Shown one piece after another: positions 21,089-31,378 of a DNA stretch of 64,000 nucleotides (within the stretch, counting starts at the first letter, position 1; every line of letters begins with the position of its first letter). The DNA comes from Escherichia phage phiWec188. The position numbers and the translations under genes are program-made. The DNA is taken from the sequence record LC739537.1. The stretch is one strand, 5' to 3'. The notes under the pieces are model-generated. The model saw nothing but the letters and a program-made list of their open reading frames with translations, had not been told where the DNA came from and made no database searches.

Positions 21089-21677
21089 ATCAAGCCAGAT
21101 TACCCTTGCCTGTGAGATCCTTACTGTTCTCAAGATTGCTGATCCTCGTTCAATCCTGGCAGGTGGCGCAGTCCGTGACTGGCGAATGTTAAATGCTGCT
21201 GGGCGAGATCTTGACTTCTACACCTCTCTTCCTGCATATAACGGGGAAGCAGAGATTAAAGAATTTATCACCACATCTTTACGTGGGACAAATATTAAGC
21301 TTTTAGGTAACAAAGATTTACCTGAAAACTATTCGTCAATGGTTGGTTTGAAACATGTGTTTGAATTTGAACGTGATGGTCAATTATGTAACCTCATGGT
21401 CATGGAAAGGGGCTACCTACCACAAGTAGCACATAACTTTGATACATCTGTTTGCCAAGCTTCTTTCGACGGAGACACCTACTGGTATAGTGATAACTTT
21501 GAAGTTACACTCGCTACTGGTATTTGTTTCTTGCACAAAGATGCAAAGGAGGATGCCAAACATGTTCGTAAACTTGCTGATCGCTTCCCAACTATGCGTT
21601 TTGTTCGTGAAGTACATGTTCGTCCCGACCCGCAAGCGGATAATTTTGAAGATTTTCAGGACGACATTCCTTGGTAA
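21081..21677 (+). CDS. minimal nucleotidyltransferase, CCA-adding/poly(A) polymerase head-domain-like
   Basis: ILAGGAVRDW followed by GRDLDFY (GGxVRD ... DxD signature of class II tRNA nucleotidyltransferases). Confidence 0.55.
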   Translation: MTKSSQITLACEILTVLKIADPRSILAGGAVRDWRMLNAAGRDLDFYTSLPAYNGEAEIKEFITTSLRGTNIKLLGNKDLPENYSSMVGLKHVFEFERDGQLCNLMVMERGYLPQVAHNFDTSVCQASFDGDTYWYSDNFEVTLATGICFLHKDAKEDAKHVRKLADRFPTMRFVREVHVRPDPQADNFEDFQDDIPW

Positions 21678-22135: not shown

Positions 22136-23044
22136 ATGTCCGTAATTAATACTGAAACTGATCGTAAAGGCAAAACTGTAACTTATGCAACTGGTGTTGT
22201 AGACTACGTTAAACTGGATAAATTTGCAGAGCCTAAAACCTTCCAATGGGATGGTAAGTCGATTGTTTCTACTCACCGTGCTTCACTCGTTCTGAAAGAA
22301 AAGGGTGCCAAGCAGGATGCAAAAGGGACGTGGATTAGCCTGGGTGATATTGAACTGAAAGAAGGTTACGAAAATCTTCAGGTTAAAGATGGTGATACTT
22401 GGATCACTATCGAAAAAGGTGTTGAAGTTAGTATTGATATCGACAAAGTTGATACCAAAGGTGACAAAACTTACTACAATACTAAGAAATCTCGTATCAC
22501 TGTTCTTTCTACTGAAGGCGTTCAAAAGAAAGAAAATAAATCAGGTGGCACTGGCGTTTCAGGTAACACTGGAAACAAACAATCCTTCAAAAAACGTGAT
22601 ACCGTAGGTCTTGAGACTGGTCATGCTGTAAACGGTGCACTGGAATTGATTCGTAATGGTGTGAAAGGTGAAGCGTTTGATATTGCAGGTGTGGTTCAGT
22701 CTGCGACTGTGACTCTGAAAGCTGAAGTGGCTAAAGAACGTGGCGTAGATATCAGTGATTATGATCTGGGGGCTTCTGTTGGTCACGCTGTTCTGAATGC
22801 CTGTAAAGATCATTCCGGTAAGTCTGTTTCAGTAGAAGATTTGATTGAAAATGCTCGTGAAGTTCTGGCACTTTCTGACAAGGTAGCTAATGCCATTCGT
22901 GGTGCAGCAGAACAACCTAAGAAAGAAGAAGCCAAGAAAGAGCCTAAGAAGGAAGAACCTAAGCAGGAGCCTAAGCAAGAACCTGCTCCTCAACAAAATC
23001 AAGAAGAACCTCCAATGGACTTCGACGAAGATATTCCTTTTTGA
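22136..23044 (+). CDS. ssb: single-stranded DNA-binding protein
   Basis: C-terminal tip MDFDEDIPF preceded by Pro/Glu/Lys-rich linker, the hallmark of bacterial-type SSB tails; start set to ATG 22136 after GAGGAG. Confidence 0.6.
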   Translation: MSVINTETDRKGKTVTYATGVVDYVKLDKFAEPKTFQWDGKSIVSTHRASLVLKEKGAKQDAKGTWISLGDIELKEGYENLQVKDGDTWITIEKGVEVSIDIDKVDTKGDKTYYNTKKSRITVLSTEGVQKKENKSGGTGVSGNTGNKQSFKKRDTVGLETGHAVNGALELIRNGVKGEAFDIAGVVQSATVTLKAEVAKERGVDISDYDLGASVGHAVLNACKDHSGKSVSVEDLIENAREVLALSDKVANAIRGAAEQPKKEEAKKEPKKEEPKQEPKQEPAPQQNQEEPPMDFDEDIPF

Positions 23045-23472
23045 TCAGTAAGTTATGCTCGTGTTGTGGGGCTGAAAAGCCTCTCAACATGTTCCAAGTA
23101 AGGAAGGCTTCTAAAGATGGCTATACGGCATCTTGTAAAGCTTGCTTAAAAGAACGTGACCGTATACGAGATCAAGACCCTGATCGTAAAGCAGCAAAAG
23201 AAAAATATGTAAAAGGGAAAGGAAAGGATAAAGCAGACGCTGCTAAAAAGCGTTGGCGAGAAAAGAATCCAAAGAAAAGATCTGTTCATGTTGCCGTAGG
23301 TAATGCATTACGAGATGGGGATTTGGTAAAACAACCTTGTCAAGTTTGCGGAGATACTACTGTTCATGCTCATCATTGCGATTATAACAAACCGTTTGAC
23401 ATTTTGTGGCTATGTCCTCTACATCATGAAGCTTGGCATCAAGAACATGGTGAAGGATTGAATGCTGAATAA
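23041..23472 (+). CDS. HNH endonuclease
   Basis: CQVCG...HAHHCDY...WLCPLHHEAWH zinc-coordinating HNH motif. Confidence 0.6.
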   Translation: MISKLCSCCGAEKPLNMFQVRKASKDGYTASCKACLKERDRIRDQDPDRKAAKEKYVKGKGKDKADAAKKRWREKNPKKRSVHVAVGNALRDGDLVKQPCQVCGDTTVHAHHCDYNKPFDILWLCPLHHEAWHQEHGEGLNAE

Positions 23473-23473
23473 A

Positions 23474-23505
23474 AAGAAAGGAGCCATTTGGCTCCTTTTC
23501 TTATT
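23474..23505. terminator. bidirectional terminator (AAAGGAGCC-ATTT-GGCTCCTTT, flanked by A-run and T-run)
   Basis: sits between the convergent plus-strand early block and minus-strand structural block. Confidence 0.6.
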
Positions 23506-26173
23506 TATAACCCGAAGGAATGCTGTTATAGTCAGAAAGTTTTGTGCAATATCTAAACAGGTAACTGTTAGCTGCACCTCCTAACGTGGTTGTTAATGTC
23601 ACACCTGATCCAGTCAAATTGGTACATCCACTAAAGAATGAAGATAAGGCTCCACGTTTACCACAAACTGTTAATCCTGGGTTGTCATTAAAGATTTTAT
23701 TAAAATCTGTAAGTGCTAAACAACCTTGGAACATAGCTGTGAAAGAAGTTACTTTCGTCGGAATATCATCAAACATTCCTACTGGAACTTCTGCCAAAGC
23801 CGTACAATCTTTAAAAGTGTAAGAGTATCTTGTAACTTTAGATAGATTCTTAAACAAATCGGAAGGAATAGACACCAAAGATGTGCAACCTTCAAACGTA
23901 CTTGACATTGTTGTTATCGAAGGGAACAGAGTGTCACTAAACAAACCTTCAGGAACAGCTTTCAAACTTGTGCAACCAGAGAAGATACCGCTCACAGATG
24001 TTCCAGTATAAGATGTATTGCTAAAACAATCTGACGTTATTCGTCTTAAGTTGACACAACCTTTCAAGAATTGCGAAGCTGGGCTTGTAGAATAACTAAT
24101 TCTGTTACCGCCCCACAGTTCTAAAAGATTTGGGTTTGCTTCTACAGACACTTCAACACTATTAACTACAGCAGCACTTGCAAAGTCAATAGCCAGTCGA
24201 TATTCTCCTGCTGGATAACTATCCACTGTAGAAAAAGCTTTGTTTCTAAATATCACTTTATTTGTAGGAACTACAACGTCGTCCACCTTAACTACAAAGT
24301 TAGCTGGTGTGACAGTACCCGATAAATTTGGGAACGTAATCGCCCCATCTGTCGAGTGGTTGAAATATCCATTTAGAACCGTTAAACTACTACTCGGAGA
24401 TGGAGCTAACTCCTTTCCCGCGACAGCATTTACCGCTAAATAAGAACTATCTTCCGCAGTTACCACGCCTTGATAGGTTGCTCTACAACCAATACGACAA
24501 TCCCCATCAGTAACCGCTGTAATAACGCCTGTAACGGGGTCAACTGTTGCTACCGTAGGGTCGTTAGAGAAATACTCAACAACCATGCCAGGGAGGTTCT
24601 CTGCCCCTGCTGGAGTTATTTCTGCCACCAATGTCTGCGTTGTCCCTTCATCCATAGCTGAAAGACTTGGAGTATACACTTCCAACGTTGAAGCATAACC
24701 TCCAGAGCTATCTGATAAAGTTGTTCCTGCTGCGTTCAATGCTGTCATCCCTGCATCAAAACCACCTTCAGCAACAAACGTCATCAAACCAGAGGAAGAT
24801 ATCGTCATATAAGCTGGGGCAGATGTTGTGTAAGCTTCGTTGAAGAGCTTACCTCCTGAAGGACTTACTGAATAGGTTAACTGTTTGGTCCCACCAACAA
24901 TACAAATACCTAAAGAATCTGTAGACAATCCTGTTGCCAGGGTAGTCCCTGTTACAGTATCTGTAGTTATAGGCGAGAAAGATGTAGAGTTAAGACCGCT
25001 GTTGAACAGGTAAGAAGCTTTTCCGTCTACCCAAGCACCGGAGTAGAAGAGGTTGCCATCGTACACAATGAAAGTTCCCTGGTAGCCCAACTGATTAGTA
25101 ACGTCCATATTGAGCGTGTGTACGCTTGTGAGCTTGTTAAGGTTCCAAGAGGCCACACCTTCAGGTTTGATTGGTTTACCGACTTGTAGTGGGTCTGTGC
25201 TCGCAGAAGCGTATCCTAAGCCAAGATTCGCTGTGTAGTTCTTACCAATGGCCCACAAAGTGTTATTTATCCCCACAAAGAAGGAATGTCTACTCGGAGG
25301 TATTACCCATGATGTAAAACCTGTTGAGAAGTTCTCAAGCTTTGTATACGTTGTTGCCGTATTGGAACGAACATACAGGTAGTTTATTGATCCTGCCCCT
25401 GCTGCTGTATCTCCAATAACAATCGTTTGGGATACTGTGTTGATGTAATCCTTAACAAACACTGTTTCAGTAGCCGAGATTGTAGCTGTAACGAAGGCTG
25501 TGGTTGTACTGTTGTTCCCTGCAACCCCTCTACTTGTCCCGCACACACGAAGTGCTCCTACATTATTGAGGTAAGTACATTGGTTGTATCCTGCATCAAA
25601 CGCCAAAGCAACGCTTGTTATCTGACGTGGAGTAGATATTTGGTTTGTGTTACTTGAACCTAAACTCCCAACAGTATTTTGTCCTGATCCGTAGAGAACT
25701 CCTGTTGTCATCAACCACAACGTGTTATTGTAACCCCCCTTGACTTCTTTCAAGTTGGCTAAGGTGATTGTTCCTGTAATTGAAGATGGGAAACTTGTCC
25801 AAGAAGTCGCACAAACATCTGATCCTCCTGCGGCATTTGCACCTACCAAACCTGCTGTCAGTCCTGCGTATTGCCATCCACCGCTTTGTAGTTTAATAAC
25901 GAAGCAACGATCTGCTGTAAACACATCCGAAGCTACCGTTGAAGCCAGGTAGAAGCTATTGAAACGAGAGCTACGCGTTCCATCTGCGATCTCCCCAAAA
26001 AGGTTGGCACCTTGCATGAACAGTCGCCCATCGTTGAGCAAAAGGGCCAGACTACTGTTAGAATTTCCCGCGTTATCTGGGTAATCTAAAGTTATTACTT
26101 TCTTGACAATCCCTGCTGGAAGTGGTATTACTCCCGCATCTGTCATAATCATCATTACTGGGATTGGAAACAT
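23501..26173 (-). CDS. tail fibre protein with Ig-like (Big_2-type) domain and C-terminal BspA/DUF285-type leucine-rich repeats
   Basis: start set to ATG 26173 after GGAGG; repeated F-x-G-C-T-x-L...P...F ~25-aa units in last ~200 aa; TVATVDPVTGVITAV Big_2-like segment. Confidence 0.55.
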   Translation of the reverse strand: MFPIPVMMIMTDAGVIPLPAGIVKKVITLDYPDNAGNSNSSLALLLNDGRLFMQGANLFGEIADGTRSSRFNSFYLASTVASDVFTADRCFVIKLQSGGWQYAGLTAGLVGANAAGGSDVCATSWTSFPSSITGTITLANLKEVKGGYNNTLWLMTTGVLYGSGQNTVGSLGSSNTNQISTPRQITSVALAFDAGYNQCTYLNNVGALRVCGTSRGVAGNNSTTTAFVTATISATETVFVKDYINTVSQTIVIGDTAAGAGSINYLYVRSNTATTYTKLENFSTGFTSWVIPPSRHSFFVGINNTLWAIGKNYTANLGLGYASASTDPLQVGKPIKPEGVASWNLNKLTSVHTLNMDVTNQLGYQGTFIVYDGNLFYSGAWVDGKASYLFNSGLNSTSFSPITTDTVTGTTLATGLSTDSLGICIVGGTKQLTYSVSPSGGKLFNEAYTTSAPAYMTISSSGLMTFVAEGGFDAGMTALNAAGTTLSDSSGGYASTLEVYTPSLSAMDEGTTQTLVAEITPAGAENLPGMVVEYFSNDPTVATVDPVTGVITAVTDGDCRIGCRATYQGVVTAEDSSYLAVNAVAGKELAPSPSSSLTVLNGYFNHSTDGAITFPNLSGTVTPANFVVKVDDVVVPTNKVIFRNKAFSTVDSYPAGEYRLAIDFASAAVVNSVEVSVEANPNLLELWGGNRISYSTSPASQFLKGCVNLRRITSDCFSNTSYTGTSVSGIFSGCTSLKAVPEGLFSDTLFPSITTMSSTFEGCTSLVSIPSDLFKNLSKVTRYSYTFKDCTALAEVPVGMFDDIPTKVTSFTAMFQGCLALTDFNKIFNDNPGLTVCGKRGALSSFFSGCTNLTGSGVTLTTTLGGAANSYLFRYCTKLSDYNSIPSGYK

Positions 26174-26184
26174 TGTTATCCTCC

Positions 26185-26211
26185 ATAAAAGAAAAGCCCC
26201 TTGCGGGGCTT
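26185..26211 (-). terminator. intrinsic terminator (AGCCCC-GCAA-GGGGCT + U-run on minus strand)
   Basis: hairpin then TTTTCTTTT in transcript orientation, just after stop of collagen-like fibre gene. Confidence 0.55.
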
Positions 26212-26214
26212 CTG

Positions 26215-28260
26215 TTATCGTGTTACAACAACCATGTCCACGATATCGCCCACACCACAATACGTTAACTGAAGGATTGTTACAGCAGATGCTGCTGTGC
26301 CTACTTCCGTATCGTTAAGTGCTCCATAAGACGCATCCAGCGTCACGGTGTGTCCCGTTGTGTCTTGCAAAAGGTAAATCATTGCAGAGAAAGCTTTCGG
26401 TTTTGTGGTTCCTGTTACTCCAGGCCATGCTCCGATCGTCAATGCGTCTGTAACGTTCACCACGTACATGTTGGTGGCCCCAGAAGGAGTCCAAGCCGTT
26501 CCTGAACTTGCTACATTAGTTGTTTCCAACTCGATGTAACCTGCGCTGACTTTCGTTGGTGCAATCTCTTGGGTAGGATCGCTGCCACTGATTTCGATCC
26601 AATCTCCATCAGAACGTCCATAGGTTAAACCATCTTCAGGAGCTTCAGGAATGCTTGGAAGTGTACCAACTTGCGTCCAAACAGTAGCAGCGGTTTTCTT
26701 AAAGACCGCCCCTGTTGCAGTGTTGAAAGCGTAGTCGTCAATAACACCTTCGGCATTGGTTGGGTTGGTTGCAGCTACAAACCATTGCGCCCCGTCCTTA
26801 CCATCTGTTCCATCAACCCCTGGTGTACCGTTAGTTCCATCTGTTCCGTCAGTACCTGCTGGACCTGGATCACCCTTATCTCCTTTGTCACCTTTATCGC
26901 CTTTTATACTACCCATATCAACAAAAGAGGCGGTGTTCGTATCTTTGTCGTAAGTGTAAATATAAAGGTTACTGGTATCTTCTGTCAGATAAGCGTCACC
27001 ATAGTTGTTGTAGGTTGGTAGTGCAGAACCGCTTGGTACGTGACCTTTAGCAGTAATGGATGTTCCACCAAGACTACCCACGTTCATCCAGTCTGTAGCA
27101 CCTTCTACCCAAACATAAAGGTTGTTGTCGATAATATATGCATCACCAACTTCACCTGTTTCTGGGAGTTGAGATTCATCAGACAGAACGTCTAAGATTT
27201 CCAAGCCAGAGCCTGTTGCACCTACTGGGCCTTGTGGACCTACTTCGCCTTGATTTCCTTGTTCACCTTGAATCCCTTGATCGCCTTTCTCGCCTTTGAT
27301 TGCTGCGATAAAATCTACTTCCGTCCCTGTATTACCGATATCTAACCAAGATTGGTAAGCAGACTTCCCTTCGTCCCCGTCTGTCCCATCCAGCCCGTCA
27401 GTACCTGCTTCACCCTGCGGACCTTGTGGCCCAACAATGTTACCCATGTTAACCCAATCTTCACCGTTGGAAACATAAAGATATCCGGCGATAGAATAAG
27501 CTTGGCTTACGTTATTTGGGTTGGCTGCGGGTAAGTTGGCAGTAGATTCCAGATCTCCACGATAATCAAAACCATTGGCATTAAGACCTGCTGCCCCTTG
27601 TGGACCTTGAGGACCAACGTCTCCTCGATCTCCTTTCAGAGATGCCAGGTAGTCGTAAATTGTACCAGTATTACCTACTGACAACCATACCTGGTACGCT
27701 GACTTTCCTTCTGGACCCAGAGAAGAAATCATTTTCCAAGTTGCGCCGTCCCAAGCGTAAATTGCGTCTCCGACAATCCAACCATCTCCTAAAGCATTAC
27801 CTGTTGTAGGTAATTGGTTGATGTTGTTCAAAGATCCTTTGATATTCAATTGTGCGCCAGTGTCACCTTTAAGAGACGCTAACCACTGTTGTTCTGTTCC
27901 TACGAAACCATTATCCAGAGCAATCTGGTAGGCTGATTTCCCAGCTTCAGGGATTTGAGAAGAGATGTTATTGATCTCTTGCTGCATTATTGCAAAACGG
28001 GCATTAATTACTGCGATATCATCAGCAGTACCTACGCTCTCCCATCCAGTGGAGCTAATGCCGCCTGTGCTTGCCGGAGTAGAGTTCTCAGGAACAACTT
28101 TCGGAAAAGCACCTTTCCATTTATAATAGTTACCGTCATCATCTAAAAGCAGAACTTCACGGGCATTACGTAAAGTAAATCCCGCTGCAAAGCTTCGACG
28201 TTTACGGTACGTAGCTTCGACCATATCTGCAATCGAGCTATTCGGTCTTGTTAAAAGCAT
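26215..28260 (-). CDS. collagen-like repeat tail fibre protein
   Basis: multiple Gly-X-Y tracts (GDKGDKGDKGDPGPAGTDGTDG..., GEKGDQGIQGEQGNQGEVGPQGP...). Confidence 0.6.
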   Translation of the reverse strand: MLLTRPNSSIADMVEATYRKRRSFAAGFTLRNAREVLLLDDDGNYYKWKGAFPKVVPENSTPASTGGISSTGWESVGTADDIAVINARFAIMQQEINNISSQIPEAGKSAYQIALDNGFVGTEQQWLASLKGDTGAQLNIKGSLNNINQLPTTGNALGDGWIVGDAIYAWDGATWKMISSLGPEGKSAYQVWLSVGNTGTIYDYLASLKGDRGDVGPQGPQGAAGLNANGFDYRGDLESTANLPAANPNNVSQAYSIAGYLYVSNGEDWVNMGNIVGPQGPQGEAGTDGLDGTDGDEGKSAYQSWLDIGNTGTEVDFIAAIKGEKGDQGIQGEQGNQGEVGPQGPVGATGSGLEILDVLSDESQLPETGEVGDAYIIDNNLYVWVEGATDWMNVGSLGGTSITAKGHVPSGSALPTYNNYGDAYLTEDTSNLYIYTYDKDTNTASFVDMGSIKGDKGDKGDKGDPGPAGTDGTDGTNGTPGVDGTDGKDGAQWFVAATNPTNAEGVIDDYAFNTATGAVFKKTAATVWTQVGTLPSIPEAPEDGLTYGRSDGDWIEISGSDPTQEIAPTKVSAGYIELETTNVASSGTAWTPSGATNMYVVNVTDALTIGAWPGVTGTTKPKAFSAMIYLLQDTTGHTVTLDASYGALNDTEVGTAASAVTILQLTYCGVGDIVDMVVVTR

Positions 28261-28327: not shown

Positions 28328-31300
28328 TTATGTCGTCGGAGTATCAATCACCGGAGTAGGACGAATTACCGCAGTGTTACCAACCGCAACGTTGCTTGAG
28401 CTATTAGGAATAGTTGTGATACGTACTCCTGCTGCTGTTGCTGTTTGGATAGGATCTGCAATATCCACCTTCACTGGGTTGGTCCAAGTGTCGTTATCCT
28501 GATAAGGGGCACGAGTGATTACTGTGTCCAAATCAGATCCGCCTGGACCTGCACCTGCGATACGGATACGTGTACCTGCTGACAGTGGGTAATGATATAA
28601 CCAAGAAGCATTTGTCGCTGTACCGTTAGGTGTCAGGTTCTGCACAATCGATTTATCACCAACATTTGTCGCTCGGATACCGAAGGCTGGAATGTCTGGG
28701 ATGTACGCACCACTTGTTGTTACAAGGAAGAACGTGTTGTCTGCTTTAACGATAATATCCCCTTTATCGAATTCTTTCCCTGTTGGGAAGTGCATCCCGT
28801 CAATGTTACGACCTGGGATTGCTTCGATGTAGTAAGATTTACCAGTAGAGCCTACCAGAGCACCAATACCACCTGCGATGTTCGTATACATGTTAGCTTC
28901 AACGTTACAGTTGATACGATGAATATCCGAGTAACGGCAACGACTCCATTGAGGACGTCCAGTTACCATTGTGTTTCCATTCGGGTAACAGTTTACGTTC
29001 ACCATCTCCAGAACTGACTTCTCTCTACGGAAGAATCCATCGTAGAAAGTACCTGGACCAGATTCAGGTTGACCCACACACTCGAAAGAGTTACAAGTGA
29101 TGTTTGCCATTGACAACCAAGAAGCGATACCAAACAATTGCAGAGCGTTACAACGGATGTTATCGAAGCTAACACGGTTCTCAAAACCTGGACCCGCTGA
29201 TACACCAGCGAACACACGACCTGTGGCAGTATGAACGTTACGTACCGAGTAGTTGAAGCAAGGGTTTGATGGACGACCCTGTGCAGGAACAACAGGTTTA
29301 CCGTCTTCACCTAAAACTGCGTTTGTACCCCATTCCAGATAAATCATACGGATTGCACTTGGCAACGTACTGTCGTCTGTAATAGGCTCACCATAAACAC
29401 CGTCGATAGTAAAGTCTTTACAACCGTACATTACAACAGCACCAGTTGCCAGACCTGTACCAACAGAAACTGTTTGGTCAGGATCGCCGTGGATGTTCTG
29501 GATAGAAATGTTACGACCAACTTCTACGTGAACAATCTGGCGGCAACGTTTCGCAAATACGTTACGGATTGTAATGTTCTTACAATACTGCGTATCTGGA
29601 ATGTCATAACCGTATGGACCTTTACCTGCTACACCGATACCGATACCCCAGTTGGAAAGAGGAATTGGTGCGTTCGTTCCGTCGATGTGAGACAAGTAGA
29701 TGTTCTCAATAACACAACCTTCATCGTAATGCTTGTTGATTACGTTCAGTTCGATTGCATCCCCTTGCATATCCATGAACGTCAAGTTACGGAAGACACC
29801 GCGACTAACTGGTTCACCAGTACCTTGTTGAAGGATACCGTAAAGTCCGTTTTTAAACGTACAGTTGTCAATCTCAAAAGTACCTGGAATTGGGTTGCCC
29901 TGGAATACCAAGCTACCAACCTGTCCGGCACGAGGTGCACCATCCCACAAGCAGTCGTAGATACGCACATCGCCACCCCAGTACATTACACGGGAGTTGC
30001 GGAAAGTTGTACCTTCCACTTTACAGTTTTGTAAACGGTAGTCACGTTGTCCACGGAAGACACCTCCAAGAAGGGTGATCCCAGTAATATCAAAAGAACT
30101 TGTAGTGAAGGTCATATCACAACCATAAGCATTCAGGATCTTGCTTTTGGTTGCTGCTGTTGCCACGAGAGCCGCTTGGAAAGCTGCTTCTGGAGTAGCG
30201 TACACTGCACTGTTTGCAAACTCGGACAGGTAAACAACATCAAACAGATCATCAAACTTACCACCGTGTGGAGTTAACAGACCTTCTGTGTTTGTCAGTA
30301 CCCAAGCATTTGGACCTACGCCGCCAGAGGAGGCAAGGGTATCACTTGCAGAGAGAGTTTTTGGCAAAGGGCCAGCCCAACGATAACGACCTGCACCCAT
30401 GCCGATAGTCTGGTGTTTGAGTGTCAGGGTAACTTCATTACCGAAGCTGGTAGGCAGATGTACATATTGCTGACGTTCAACTGCTAATGCTGCCAAGTCA
30501 ACAGTACCAGAAGAGTGGGTAAGAACACCAGTATCTGATAAGCTAACAAATGTCCCAGTTAAACCAGGTGGCAGGGTGTAAGCTATTTGGTTAGTGGCAT
30601 CATACAGGGCTTTCAGACCTACTAAAGCTTGTCCTGATTTTGCGTAAGCCACTTCATAATTCAGGAAACCATATTTACGAGCGATTGTCTGAAGAGGAAC
30701 AGCGTTCATATCTTCGGTCAATGTTTCAGTAGTTGTTTCCAGGTTAGAAATTCGGTTTTCGAGGTTAGGATCGTTTTCTGCGCTTGCTACAATCTTACCG
30801 ATGTAAGCAAACAACTGATTAGGTAATCCAGTTGCAGGATCGTGTCCAAGTGGTTCGGACAAGATGATCTGACTGTTCTCAATACGGAAGGCATCACCCA
30901 CAATCTGGATAACGCCGTTGATAGTCACAATAGCACTATCGAACACATAAGGAGGACTGATTACTTTTTCATAACCTGTTGCAGAGGTATACAGCCAAGG
31001 AATAACTTCACTTGGCAGTTGTTCAGTCTGCATTCCCCACAGCACCCAGTTATTGTCCCCGACTGGAGTCCCTTGCATTGGGATAGGGTTCACCAGTGTT
31101 GCTGCTGGAGCGTAGTAGTATCCACTCAAGATTCCGTTCTGATAGAAACGGAGTTGGTTGAATACTGTTTCATTGGTCCCTTGCGCCCAGGCAATAGGAC
31201 TTTTGAAGTAAAAGTTATCAACCAAAGCCTTACGTAAAGTCGGAATCAATCCTGATTCCGTGTCAATACTTTCTGTTGCGCTTCCGTTGATGATATCGTG

Positions 31301-31378
31301 TATCTGGTTAGAAGAGAAGATTACCAGATCTACGCCCTGTTCCAAGGACGTAGCGGGATATGTTGGGAATAGTGTCAT
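28328..31378 (-). CDS. large tail fibre/tailspike protein, probable beta-helix (depolymerase-like) central domain
   Basis: 1016 aa; Asn/Gly-rich repetitive beta-strand segments (IDNCTFKNG..., NITIRNVFAKRC...) typical of right-handed beta-helix. Confidence 0.5.
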   Translation of the reverse strand: MTLFPTYPATSLEQGVDLVIFSSNQIHDIINGSATESIDTESGLIPTLRKALVDNFYFKSPIAWAQGTNETVFNQLRFYQNGILSGYYYAPAATLVNPIPMQGTPVGDNNWVLWGMQTEQLPSEVIPWLYTSATGYEKVISPPYVFDSAIVTINGVIQIVGDAFRIENSQIILSEPLGHDPATGLPNQLFAYIGKIVASAENDPNLENRISNLETTTETLTEDMNAVPLQTIARKYGFLNYEVAYAKSGQALVGLKALYDATNQIAYTLPPGLTGTFVSLSDTGVLTHSSGTVDLAALAVERQQYVHLPTSFGNEVTLTLKHQTIGMGAGRYRWAGPLPKTLSASDTLASSGGVGPNAWVLTNTEGLLTPHGGKFDDLFDVVYLSEFANSAVYATPEAAFQAALVATAATKSKILNAYGCDMTFTTSSFDITGITLLGGVFRGQRDYRLQNCKVEGTTFRNSRVMYWGGDVRIYDCLWDGAPRAGQVGSLVFQGNPIPGTFEIDNCTFKNGLYGILQQGTGEPVSRGVFRNLTFMDMQGDAIELNVINKHYDEGCVIENIYLSHIDGTNAPIPLSNWGIGIGVAGKGPYGYDIPDTQYCKNITIRNVFAKRCRQIVHVEVGRNISIQNIHGDPDQTVSVGTGLATGAVVMYGCKDFTIDGVYGEPITDDSTLPSAIRMIYLEWGTNAVLGEDGKPVVPAQGRPSNPCFNYSVRNVHTATGRVFAGVSAGPGFENRVSFDNIRCNALQLFGIASWLSMANITCNSFECVGQPESGPGTFYDGFFRREKSVLEMVNVNCYPNGNTMVTGRPQWSRCRYSDIHRINCNVEANMYTNIAGGIGALVGSTGKSYYIEAIPGRNIDGMHFPTGKEFDKGDIIVKADNTFFLVTTSGAYIPDIPAFGIRATNVGDKSIVQNLTPNGTATNASWLYHYPLSAGTRIRIAGAGPGGSDLDTVITRAPYQDNDTWTNPVKVDIADPIQTATAAGVRITTIPNSSSNVAVGNTAVIRPTPVIDTPTT

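Follow-up and report, generated by a model that had tools for sequence, protein, structure and literature searches.

A leucine-rich repeat cassette at the C-terminus of TfpM1, a modular tail protein of Escherichia phage phiWec188

We analysed a 64,000-nt window of the genome of Escherichia phage phiWec188 (sequence record LC739537.1), a myovirus of the Stephanstirmvirinae, with a focus on one gene of its minus strand (23501-26173) that encodes a protein of 890 aa. The C-terminal part of this protein is an array of leucine-rich repeats (LRRs) that is replaced as a unit in related phages. The gene probably encodes a modular tail-associated host-adhesion protein, with a docking N-terminus, an immunoglobulin-like (Ig) spacer and an exchangeable LRR cassette binding the host envelope; we put the probability of this reading at about 0.6. 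An LRR-tipped module would be an unusual, not an unprecedented, way for a phage to recognize cells, and here it is most likely the host-binding tip.

The gene starts with ATG at 26173 and ends with TAA at 23501-23503. The longest minus-strand open reading frame (ORF), 23501-26260, overlaps the 3′ end of the upstream gene by its first 29 codons. We took ATG 26173 as the start because it follows the Shine-Dalgarno sequence GGAGGA (26179-26184, minus strand, 5 nt upstream of the ATG) and a hairpin located after the upstream stop codon, whereas the longer ORF runs into the upstream gene. An earlier note on this DNA, made from the sequence alone, had placed the gene at 23501-26173, and we keep that model. 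The complete coding sequence (CDS) is 100% identical over 2673 nt to a CDS of phage phiWec190 (LC739539.1) labelled ‘hypothetical protein’ in GenBank; the same protein was named TfpM1 in Kaneko et al. 2025. It belongs to PHROG 11922 (‘tail protein’, the Phapecoctavirus TfpM1 family), matching profile positions 1-867 of 870 over aa 1-890 (E = 0, 1190 bits). Plus-strand ORFs of 63-78 aa inside the gene had no support and were disregarded.

The LRR solenoid, of the BspA/TpLRR/DUF285 type, occupies aa 700-890 (23504-24076, minus strand) and was detected by motif counts, AlphaFold2 modelling, Foldseek comparison and profile searches. Seven copies of the motif [FL]x[GDY]C[TVL]xL (at aa 703, 731, 760, 787, 815, 847 and 873) lie in an array of ∼188 aa, while each of 20,000 shuffled versions of the C-terminal 200 aa contained one copy at most. 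Spacings between the seven units are 28, 29, 27, 28, 32 and 26 aa. The F-x-G-C-T-x-L repeats that the earlier note had read in the C-terminal ∼200 residues are thus real and far beyond chance; the period of ∼25 aa given there has to be lengthened to ∼28 aa (range 26-32). A search with Tandem Repeats Finder found no tandem repeats in the gene at the DNA level, so the repeats are old and diverged rather than products of recent duplication.

The AlphaFold2 model of aa 585-890, built on a 45-sequence alignment, has a predicted local distance difference test score (pLDDT) of 87.7 and a predicted template modelling score (pTM) of 0.85. It consists of a beta-sandwich (aa ∼598-690) followed by the solenoid, in which each turn contributes one short beta-strand (aa 726-728, 755-757, 782-784 and 810-812). 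The last LRR units are irregular and partly helical, leaving only about five regular turns. Tandem repeats, a hydrophobic/Cys ladder, a curved solenoid and one parallel strand per turn in this predicted structure agree with the fold of the LRR superfamily, and structure prediction, which had been proposed as a check of the LRR assignment, came out in its favour. The structures ranked highest by Foldseek for the C-terminus were 4gt6 and 4fs7, both deposited as leucine-rich surface proteins (4fs7 as an uncharacterized LRR protein); we take both to be BspA-type LRRs. A profile built from the homologues matched 4fs7 (1.4e-31), 4gt6 (3.1e-27) and TpLRR (1.8e-14).

By single-sequence searches the array falls short of formal family membership. 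The best Pfam repeat match is DUF285 (PF03382) at aa 750-821, scoring 18.8 bits when the full protein is searched and 21.0 bits with the C-terminus alone, against a gathering threshold of 25 (E-values from 3e-4 to 1.4e-3). LRR_5 (PF13306, gathering threshold 27.7 bits) gave no match at E ≤ 1, and a scan of NCBIfam returned only an insignificant hit to PARCEL (16 versus 30 bits). Among the homologues, LRR_5 matches were found in 23 of 45 (best E-value 3e-76) and DUF285 matches in 20 of 45 (best 2e-70). An exhaustive search among 1.84 billion representatives retrieved 14,490 relatives at E ≤ 1e-3, 699 of them at E ≤ 1e-30; of eight top relatives scanned, seven scored above the DUF285 cut-off and three above that of LRR_5. 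These top relatives join the LRR to BACON, Mfa-like fimbrillin, PKD, fn3 and Kelch domains, an arrangement proper to surface adhesins of bacteria. The array is therefore best described as a divergent relative of DUF285 rather than a formal Pfam member, with relatives that leave its lineage in little doubt. The BspA/DUF285 class proposed in the earlier note holds as to repeat class and fold; the thresholds of the two Pfam families are not reached by the sequence itself.

Two further elements belong to the C-terminal module. The cap motif CTKLSDYNSIPSGYK (aa 876-890; 23504-23548, minus strand) is conserved in distant phage homologues, and its single degenerate pattern, [TS][KTG]L[ST][DN]Y..[IM]P, retrieved 35 viral loci from IMG/VR. 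The small beta-sandwich (aa 598-690; 24104-24382, minus strand), delimited in the AlphaFold2 models, travels with the LRR; Foldseek related it weakly (E 0.05-0.2) to small domains of the phage tail or tailspike proteins 8es4_F, 7rej_B and 9k09_U. Residues exposed in the model beside the hydrophobic centre of the LRR strands are small polar or basic ones (S-V-S, T-M-S, R-Y-S and S-F-T). When variable positions from 13 homologues were mapped on the repeat register, no clear hypervariability of the concave face was seen.

The rest of the protein was modelled as a string of globular domains, with the predicted order propeller, Ig, Ig, linker, sandwich and LRR (pLDDT of the full-length model, 84.8). 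The first ∼400 residues, 45% of the protein, form an all-beta domain, predicted to be an RCC1-like seven-bladed beta-propeller (aa 1-∼400; 24974-26173, minus strand). The assignment comes from repeat signature and predicted fold together: the Pfam RCC1 match is marginal (21.8 bits versus a cut-off of 21.7) and the match to PF25390, the RCC1-like domain (RLD) family, has an E-value of 2.4e-11 and stays below its 150-bit cut-off, while Foldseek aligned aa 1-400 with UVR8, RCC1, RPGR and HERC2 RLDs over ∼390 columns (E down to 7.5e-12; TM-score 0.5-0.66 on the target). Several PHROGs matching this part carry the name ‘regulator of chromosome condensation’. The first ∼60 residues are the most conserved stretch of the family, with many invariant positions in aa 1-61.

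The propeller is followed by an Ig-like beta-sandwich (aa ∼410-495; 24689-24946, minus strand), seen in the full-length model, and by a second Ig-like domain (aa ∼498-583; 24425-24682, minus strand), an all-beta domain in the model that Pfam identifies as Big_2 (PF02368; aa 506-561, 35.6 bits versus a cut-off of 22.8). PHROG 215 (‘structural protein with Ig domain’) spans both regions (aa 398-584). A flexible linker, AGKELAPSPSSS (aa 584-597; 24383-24424, minus strand), with pLDDT below 50 at aa 585-588, separates the Ig domains from the sandwich. The Ig-like domain of the earlier note is thus borne out and joined by a second one; its architecture of Ig plus LRR was right in both parts and incomplete, as it missed the N-terminal propeller of ∼400 aa, the second Ig domain and the beta-sandwich. 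No coiled coil, collagen, beta-helix or other trimeric fibre element was predicted in the full-length monomer model. Because of this, and because its domains are of usually monomeric kinds, the protein does not look like a classical fibre.

The linker is also where homologous proteins part. Compared with phAPEC8 gp086, identity is 83% over aa 1-584, where the BLASTP alignment breaks off, and none is left thereafter; nucleotide identity drops from ∼76% to 27.6% at the same point, which coincides with the disordered linker. Phages ESCO5 and phAPEC8 are 98.5% identical over nt 1-1350 of the gene and 28% identical over nt 1753-2670, so one backbone carries either of two unrelated C-terminal cassettes. 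A further protein (P0052) combines an N-terminus of the phiWec190 type (99%) with a C-terminus of the phAPEC8 type; taken with the previous pair, it means that both cassettes occur on both backbones. The ESCO5-phAPEC8 comparison together with P0052 provides the clean evidence for a C-terminal swap, and aa 585-890 (sandwich plus LRR) accordingly behave as one exchangeable cassette at the sequence level. Of the records in the phage collection, 35 have the LRR cassette at ≥90% identity; the alternative cassette was found in at least 39 at ≥90% plus ∼21 more divergent ones. Two relatives with the same propeller and Ig architecture (P0065 and P0069) have classical DUF285 C-termini (145 and 138 bits), and some others end after the Ig domains.

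Another pair had looked like a case of exchange. The C-terminal identity of 98.5% to phage PsgM04F was considered as horizontal transfer of the LRR cassette and rejected: phiWec190 and PsgM04F are 96-100% identical across the whole neighbourhood, Ig and LRR included, and it is the propeller that diverges (65-78% in the interval 24792-26191), with 72% identity between the two phages.

A metagenomic phage contig (L004, Logan SRR10359460; 8001-9191) contains a 396-aa gene in which aa 1-74 of TfpM2, the product of the gene upstream of TfpM1, with its Tail_spike_N domain, are fused to TfpM1 aa 568-890. The end of the second Ig domain, the sandwich and the LRR are kept, and ∼3.3 kb are deleted. The junction shows an imperfect microhomology of ∼20 nt (CAA.GTGTTG..ACCGCT), too short for a k-mer assembly artefact. 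This fusion suggests that the sandwich-LRR unit can ride on a different anchor, and it resembles a natural minimal LRR fibre.

LRR modules are found on adsorption proteins of other phages as well. The nearest homologues outside the family (30-35% identity), phage-borne too, have the same cap, CT.LS.Y..IP..WK. One of them (P0004) is encoded in a 41-kb contig of a temperate phage, preceded by large virion proteins and followed by a DUF4376 gene and by the genes for holin and lysozyme; we take DUF4376 to be a domain known from tail-fibre assembly proteins. At three loci (L016-L018) a 300-aa LRR protein is encoded between a gene for a 1720-aa collagen-like tail fibre and a tail-fibre assembly gene. 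In the P2-like Klebsiella prophage ST16-OXA48phi5.4 (NC_049450.1; L003, 2547-5573), the baseplate protein gpI (Tail_P2_I) is extended to 1008 aa by Big_2 and a long LRR_5/DUF285 array that scores above the Pfam thresholds. This fusion, found in at least 14 records of Klebsiella phages, is an independent case in which a baseplate or tail protein of a phage bears an LRR of the BspA type. PHROG 9915 (1813 aa) is another phage LRR family, and LRR/beta-helix domains have been predicted in proposed host-recognition proteins of phage Goslar (bioRxiv 10.64898/2026.04.21.720040). A scan of genome contigs with close relatives returned a single contig of a metagenome-assembled genome (91% identity), probably of phage origin, so close relatives are essentially confined to phage sequences. 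Judged from these genomic settings, LRR modules on phage adsorption proteins are recurrent, with related modules at tail-fibre-tip positions in unrelated phages.

TfpM1 is the last gene of the minus-strand late structural block. The gene immediately upstream encodes TfpM2 (681 aa; 26215-28260, minus strand, stop codon 26215-26217), with collagen repeats and a Tail_spike_N domain of the TSP1/gp66 type at aa 11-77. Next come a gene for a 1016-aa tailspike (28328-31378, minus strand; Tail_spike_N of the same type at aa 299-361), whose relatives are annotated ‘colanic acid degradation’, and, further upstream, genes for tail-fibre assembly, a short fibre and the baseplate. Two adsorption proteins with Tail_spike_N suggest that the phage uses a branched attachment scheme of the CBA120/G7C kind. 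Proteins in the same terminal position of the tail block are phAPEC8 gp086, ESCO5 gp226, PVP-SE1 gp40 and bas49_0041 of the Vequintavirus EmilHeitz, the last being a ‘lateral tail fiber protein with intimin domain’ and an orthologue of rV5 gp27; this synteny is kept across Vequintavirinae and Stephanstirmvirinae. Downstream of TfpM1 there is no cognate chaperone gene.

The 41-nt gap between TfpM2 and TfpM1 has no promoter-like site. It contains a terminator-like GC-rich hairpin with a T-run (26192-26213, minus strand), between the TfpM2 stop codon and the Shine-Dalgarno sequence of TfpM1, at the place where a terminator is annotated in phAPEC8. Such a hairpin would attenuate read-through and keep the copy number of TfpM1 below that of the upstream fibre protein. 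At the other end, a bidirectional terminator-like hairpin (23476-23499) separates the gene from convergent plus-strand replication genes and marks the end of the late block.

Beyond this hairpin, between an SSB-like gene and the 3′ end of the tail gene, there is a 143-aa ORF (23041-23472, plus strand) with a Cys-rich N-terminus and an HNH-like motif, HHCDYNKPFDILWLCPLHHEAWH; Pfam gave no significant match for it. PsgM04F has an ‘endonuclease’ in this position, and ESCO5 and phAPEC8 lack any gene here. The ORF may encode a homing endonuclease and thereby favour replacement of the cassette next to it. Comparison with PsgM04F also revealed short patches of low identity (61-64%) at 21192-21591, within a nucleotidyltransferase gene, and at 22992-23191, at the start of the HNH-like ORF, in surroundings of 84-100%; these patches indicate fine-scale mosaicism around the end of the tail gene.

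For TfpM1 the following mode of action can be proposed. The extreme N-terminus and the RCC1-like propeller most likely dock the protein on the tail-fibre or baseplate apparatus, and the two Ig-like domains would serve as a spacer. The LRR most likely binds a ligand of the host envelope, presumably via the Ser/Thr/Arg-lined face of its parallel strands; exchange of the whole cassette by recombination in the linker would then change the ligand recognized. The polar and basic strand residues would suit a glycan or the core of lipopolysaccharide (LPS), and a protein ligand is also conceivable. A virion location with the C-terminus pointing outward, a probably monomeric state, a bacterial ligand and the strand face as binding surface are what we infer from domain content, predicted folds and gene position. 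The same applies to the earlier note's wording of a distal fibre and a host-range determinant, both of which are inferential.

Published genetics bears on this point. Phage phiWec190 needs waaG, waaT and yhaH, and the sister phiWec group needs waaT and flhD; between the two groups, TfpL and TfpM1 are different, chiefly in their C-terminal parts. The sister group presumably carries the phAPEC8-type cassette, judging from P0052 and the reported length of 891 aa. The TfpM1 allele difference coincides with a difference in receptor-gene dependence, a relationship that is correlative. As to the virion, a published mass-spectrometry table for rV5 lists gp27, a homologue of the TfpM1 N-terminus, with three low-quality, mostly non-tryptic peptides (3.1% coverage), a weak support for virion association.

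Several observations weigh against a role in host adhesion as outlined. The correlation with receptor genes is confounded by the differences in TfpL, and YhaH is an inner-membrane protein, out of reach of an external LRR. Virion presence and binding are deduced, and the structures are predicted. All predicted domains are of usually monomeric kinds and no trimeric element accompanies them; neither Tail_spike_N nor another N-terminal anchor family was found in the protein, while both its neighbours have Tail_spike_N. The strong hairpin upstream may mean low or separately controlled expression. At two of three IMG/VR loci inspected, L012 and L013, head genes rather than tail genes are found near the LRR gene. 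Finally, the propeller region is, by the PsgM04F comparison, a mosaic patch too, and may serve for binding as a second module instead of being just an anchor.

A broader proposal starts from the module instead of the gene. Sandwich, LRR and cap could constitute a widespread class of monomeric LRR receptor-binding tips, drawn from the pool of bacterial fimbrial and surface adhesins, that move between unrelated phage lineages and bind a protein or core LPS; we regard this as possible and hold it tentatively. The lineages would be, with the same reserve, rV5-like myoviruses, P2-like prophages, temperate phages with fibre chaperones and large metagenomic phages. Were it true, LRR tips would recognize their ligand in the manner of innate-immune LRR receptors, a mechanism unlike that of the trimeric lectin-like or enzymatic tips of model phages.

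The protein could also be an accessory adhesin, i.e. a Hoc-like tail decoration that uses its Ig, propeller and LRR domains to hold the virion on mucus, animal surfaces, capsule or biofilm matrix and does not bind the infection receptor. Such a role fits a globular, Ig-rich and probably monomeric architecture. It also fits the closest LRR relatives, which are surface adhesins of bacteria and contain BACON or fimbrillin domains of the kind typical for gut bacteria. Justusliebigvirus relatives lack the gene, which is hence dispensable for the basic infection machinery (PMC12695924), and the upstream terminator suggests sub-stoichiometric expression. However, exchange of a C-terminal cassette between near-identical backbones is the usual signature of a host-specificity module, homologues occupy tail-fibre-tip positions beside fibre chaperones, and the allele difference coincides with the receptor-gene dependence of the phiWec groups. 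We consider an accessory adhesin doubtful; the companion idea, that the protein raises the encounter rate and does not decide which strains can be infected, is doubtful to the same degree.

LRRs are classic scaffolds of protein-protein interaction, and the module could instead make its contacts inside the virion, where it might hold a chaperone or another fibre. The lack of a recognizable anchor domain and of a cognate chaperone gene after TfpM1 would agree with such an assembly or docking role. A docking module should nevertheless co-vary with its partner in the virion, yet unrelated C-termini sit on 98.5% identical N-termini in otherwise similar genomes; the invariant end of the family is the N-terminus, not the C-terminus, and in one fusion (P0001) the LRR is placed on a different anchor. 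This makes docking by the LRR unlikely. That TfpM1 is a late soluble or released factor (for superinfection exclusion or matrix binding) merely encoded beside tail genes, as terminator-like hairpins on both sides, a possible sign of a separate unit, and the GenBank label ‘hypothetical protein’ might suggest, is very improbable given the same strand, tight spacing, conserved synteny as terminal tail gene, membership in a PHROG tail family, the (weak) rV5 gp27 peptides in virions and a 41-nt gap with no promoter-like site.

Databases already list the gene and its family as ‘tail protein’, so neither is new. That the tip is an LRR, that it has a conserved cap, that it behaves as a cassette and that it recurs at fibre-tip positions in unrelated phages is not described in the searchable literature. 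Our literature searches found no account of a BspA-type LRR or an RCC1 propeller in phage receptor-binding proteins, no Phapecoctavirus virion proteomics and no description of the LRR allele as an LRR; papers retrieved with DUF285 and phage were irrelevant to this protein. The same literature holds no structural or functional characterization of a phage receptor-binding domain built from LRRs. Phages of the rV5-like and phAPEC8-like groups, which are widely isolated as candidates for therapy, have a large set of tail fibres, most of it without assignment, and according to Maffei et al. 2021 it is unclear which genes form which fibres. A delimited and naturally swapped cassette (breakpoint aa 584/585) with an LRR adhesin allele offers a concrete engineerable handle for host-range work. 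The module also connects the adsorption proteins of phages with the BspA/DUF285 families of adhesins from bacteria of the gut and mucosa.

Among known systems, the BspA/TpLRR proteins of the LRR_5 class (BACOVA_04585, 4fs7; FAEPRAA2165_01021, 4gt6; Treponema pallidum TpLRR, 6mlx) have repeats of ∼23 aa, whereas those of TfpM1 span 26-32 aa; they are bacterial surface proteins, while here the array is on a phage tail protein and consists of about five regular turns and an irregular helical C-terminal cap. With DUF285 (the ‘PARCEL’ repeats of Mycoplasma and Listeria lipoproteins) TfpM1 shares the register ...V-T-x-x-x-x-x-F-x-G-C-T-x-L, though the DUF285 C-terminus of the P0065 type is only weakly similar to it (32% over 113 aa). 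The gpI-Big_2-LRR protein of the Klebsiella Reipivirus, PHROG 9915 and, by prediction, the Goslar DUF7941 proteins have the same type of LRR in tail or baseplate proteins; they are unrelated to TfpM1 otherwise, with sequence identity of only ∼30%, and none is experimentally characterized.

The terminal tail proteins of rV5-like phages are homologous to TfpM1 in the N-terminus (PVP-SE1, 36% over aa 1-582; Vequintavirus, 33-36% over aa 1-195), and their C-termini are wholly different from the LRR module. The rV5-type protein, with 1878 aa, contains numerous Ig/intimin domains, nothing follows the Ig domains in PVP-SE1 and other short forms, and the phAPEC8-type C-terminus has no Pfam match; allelic variation in this terminal gene of the tail cluster was noted by Maffei et al. 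2021. Cassette-type receptor-binding proteins, such as the branched tailspikes of CBA120 and G7C and the distal fibre tips of T-even phages, likewise combine a conserved N-terminus with a recombining C-terminus and a breakpoint at a domain linker, and, as in those systems, TfpM1 adjoins fibres and spikes bearing Tail_spike_N. They have trimeric beta-helix or fibre folds, whereas TfpM1, which lacks Tail_spike_N, is predicted to combine an LRR tip with an RCC1-like propeller, both normally monomeric.

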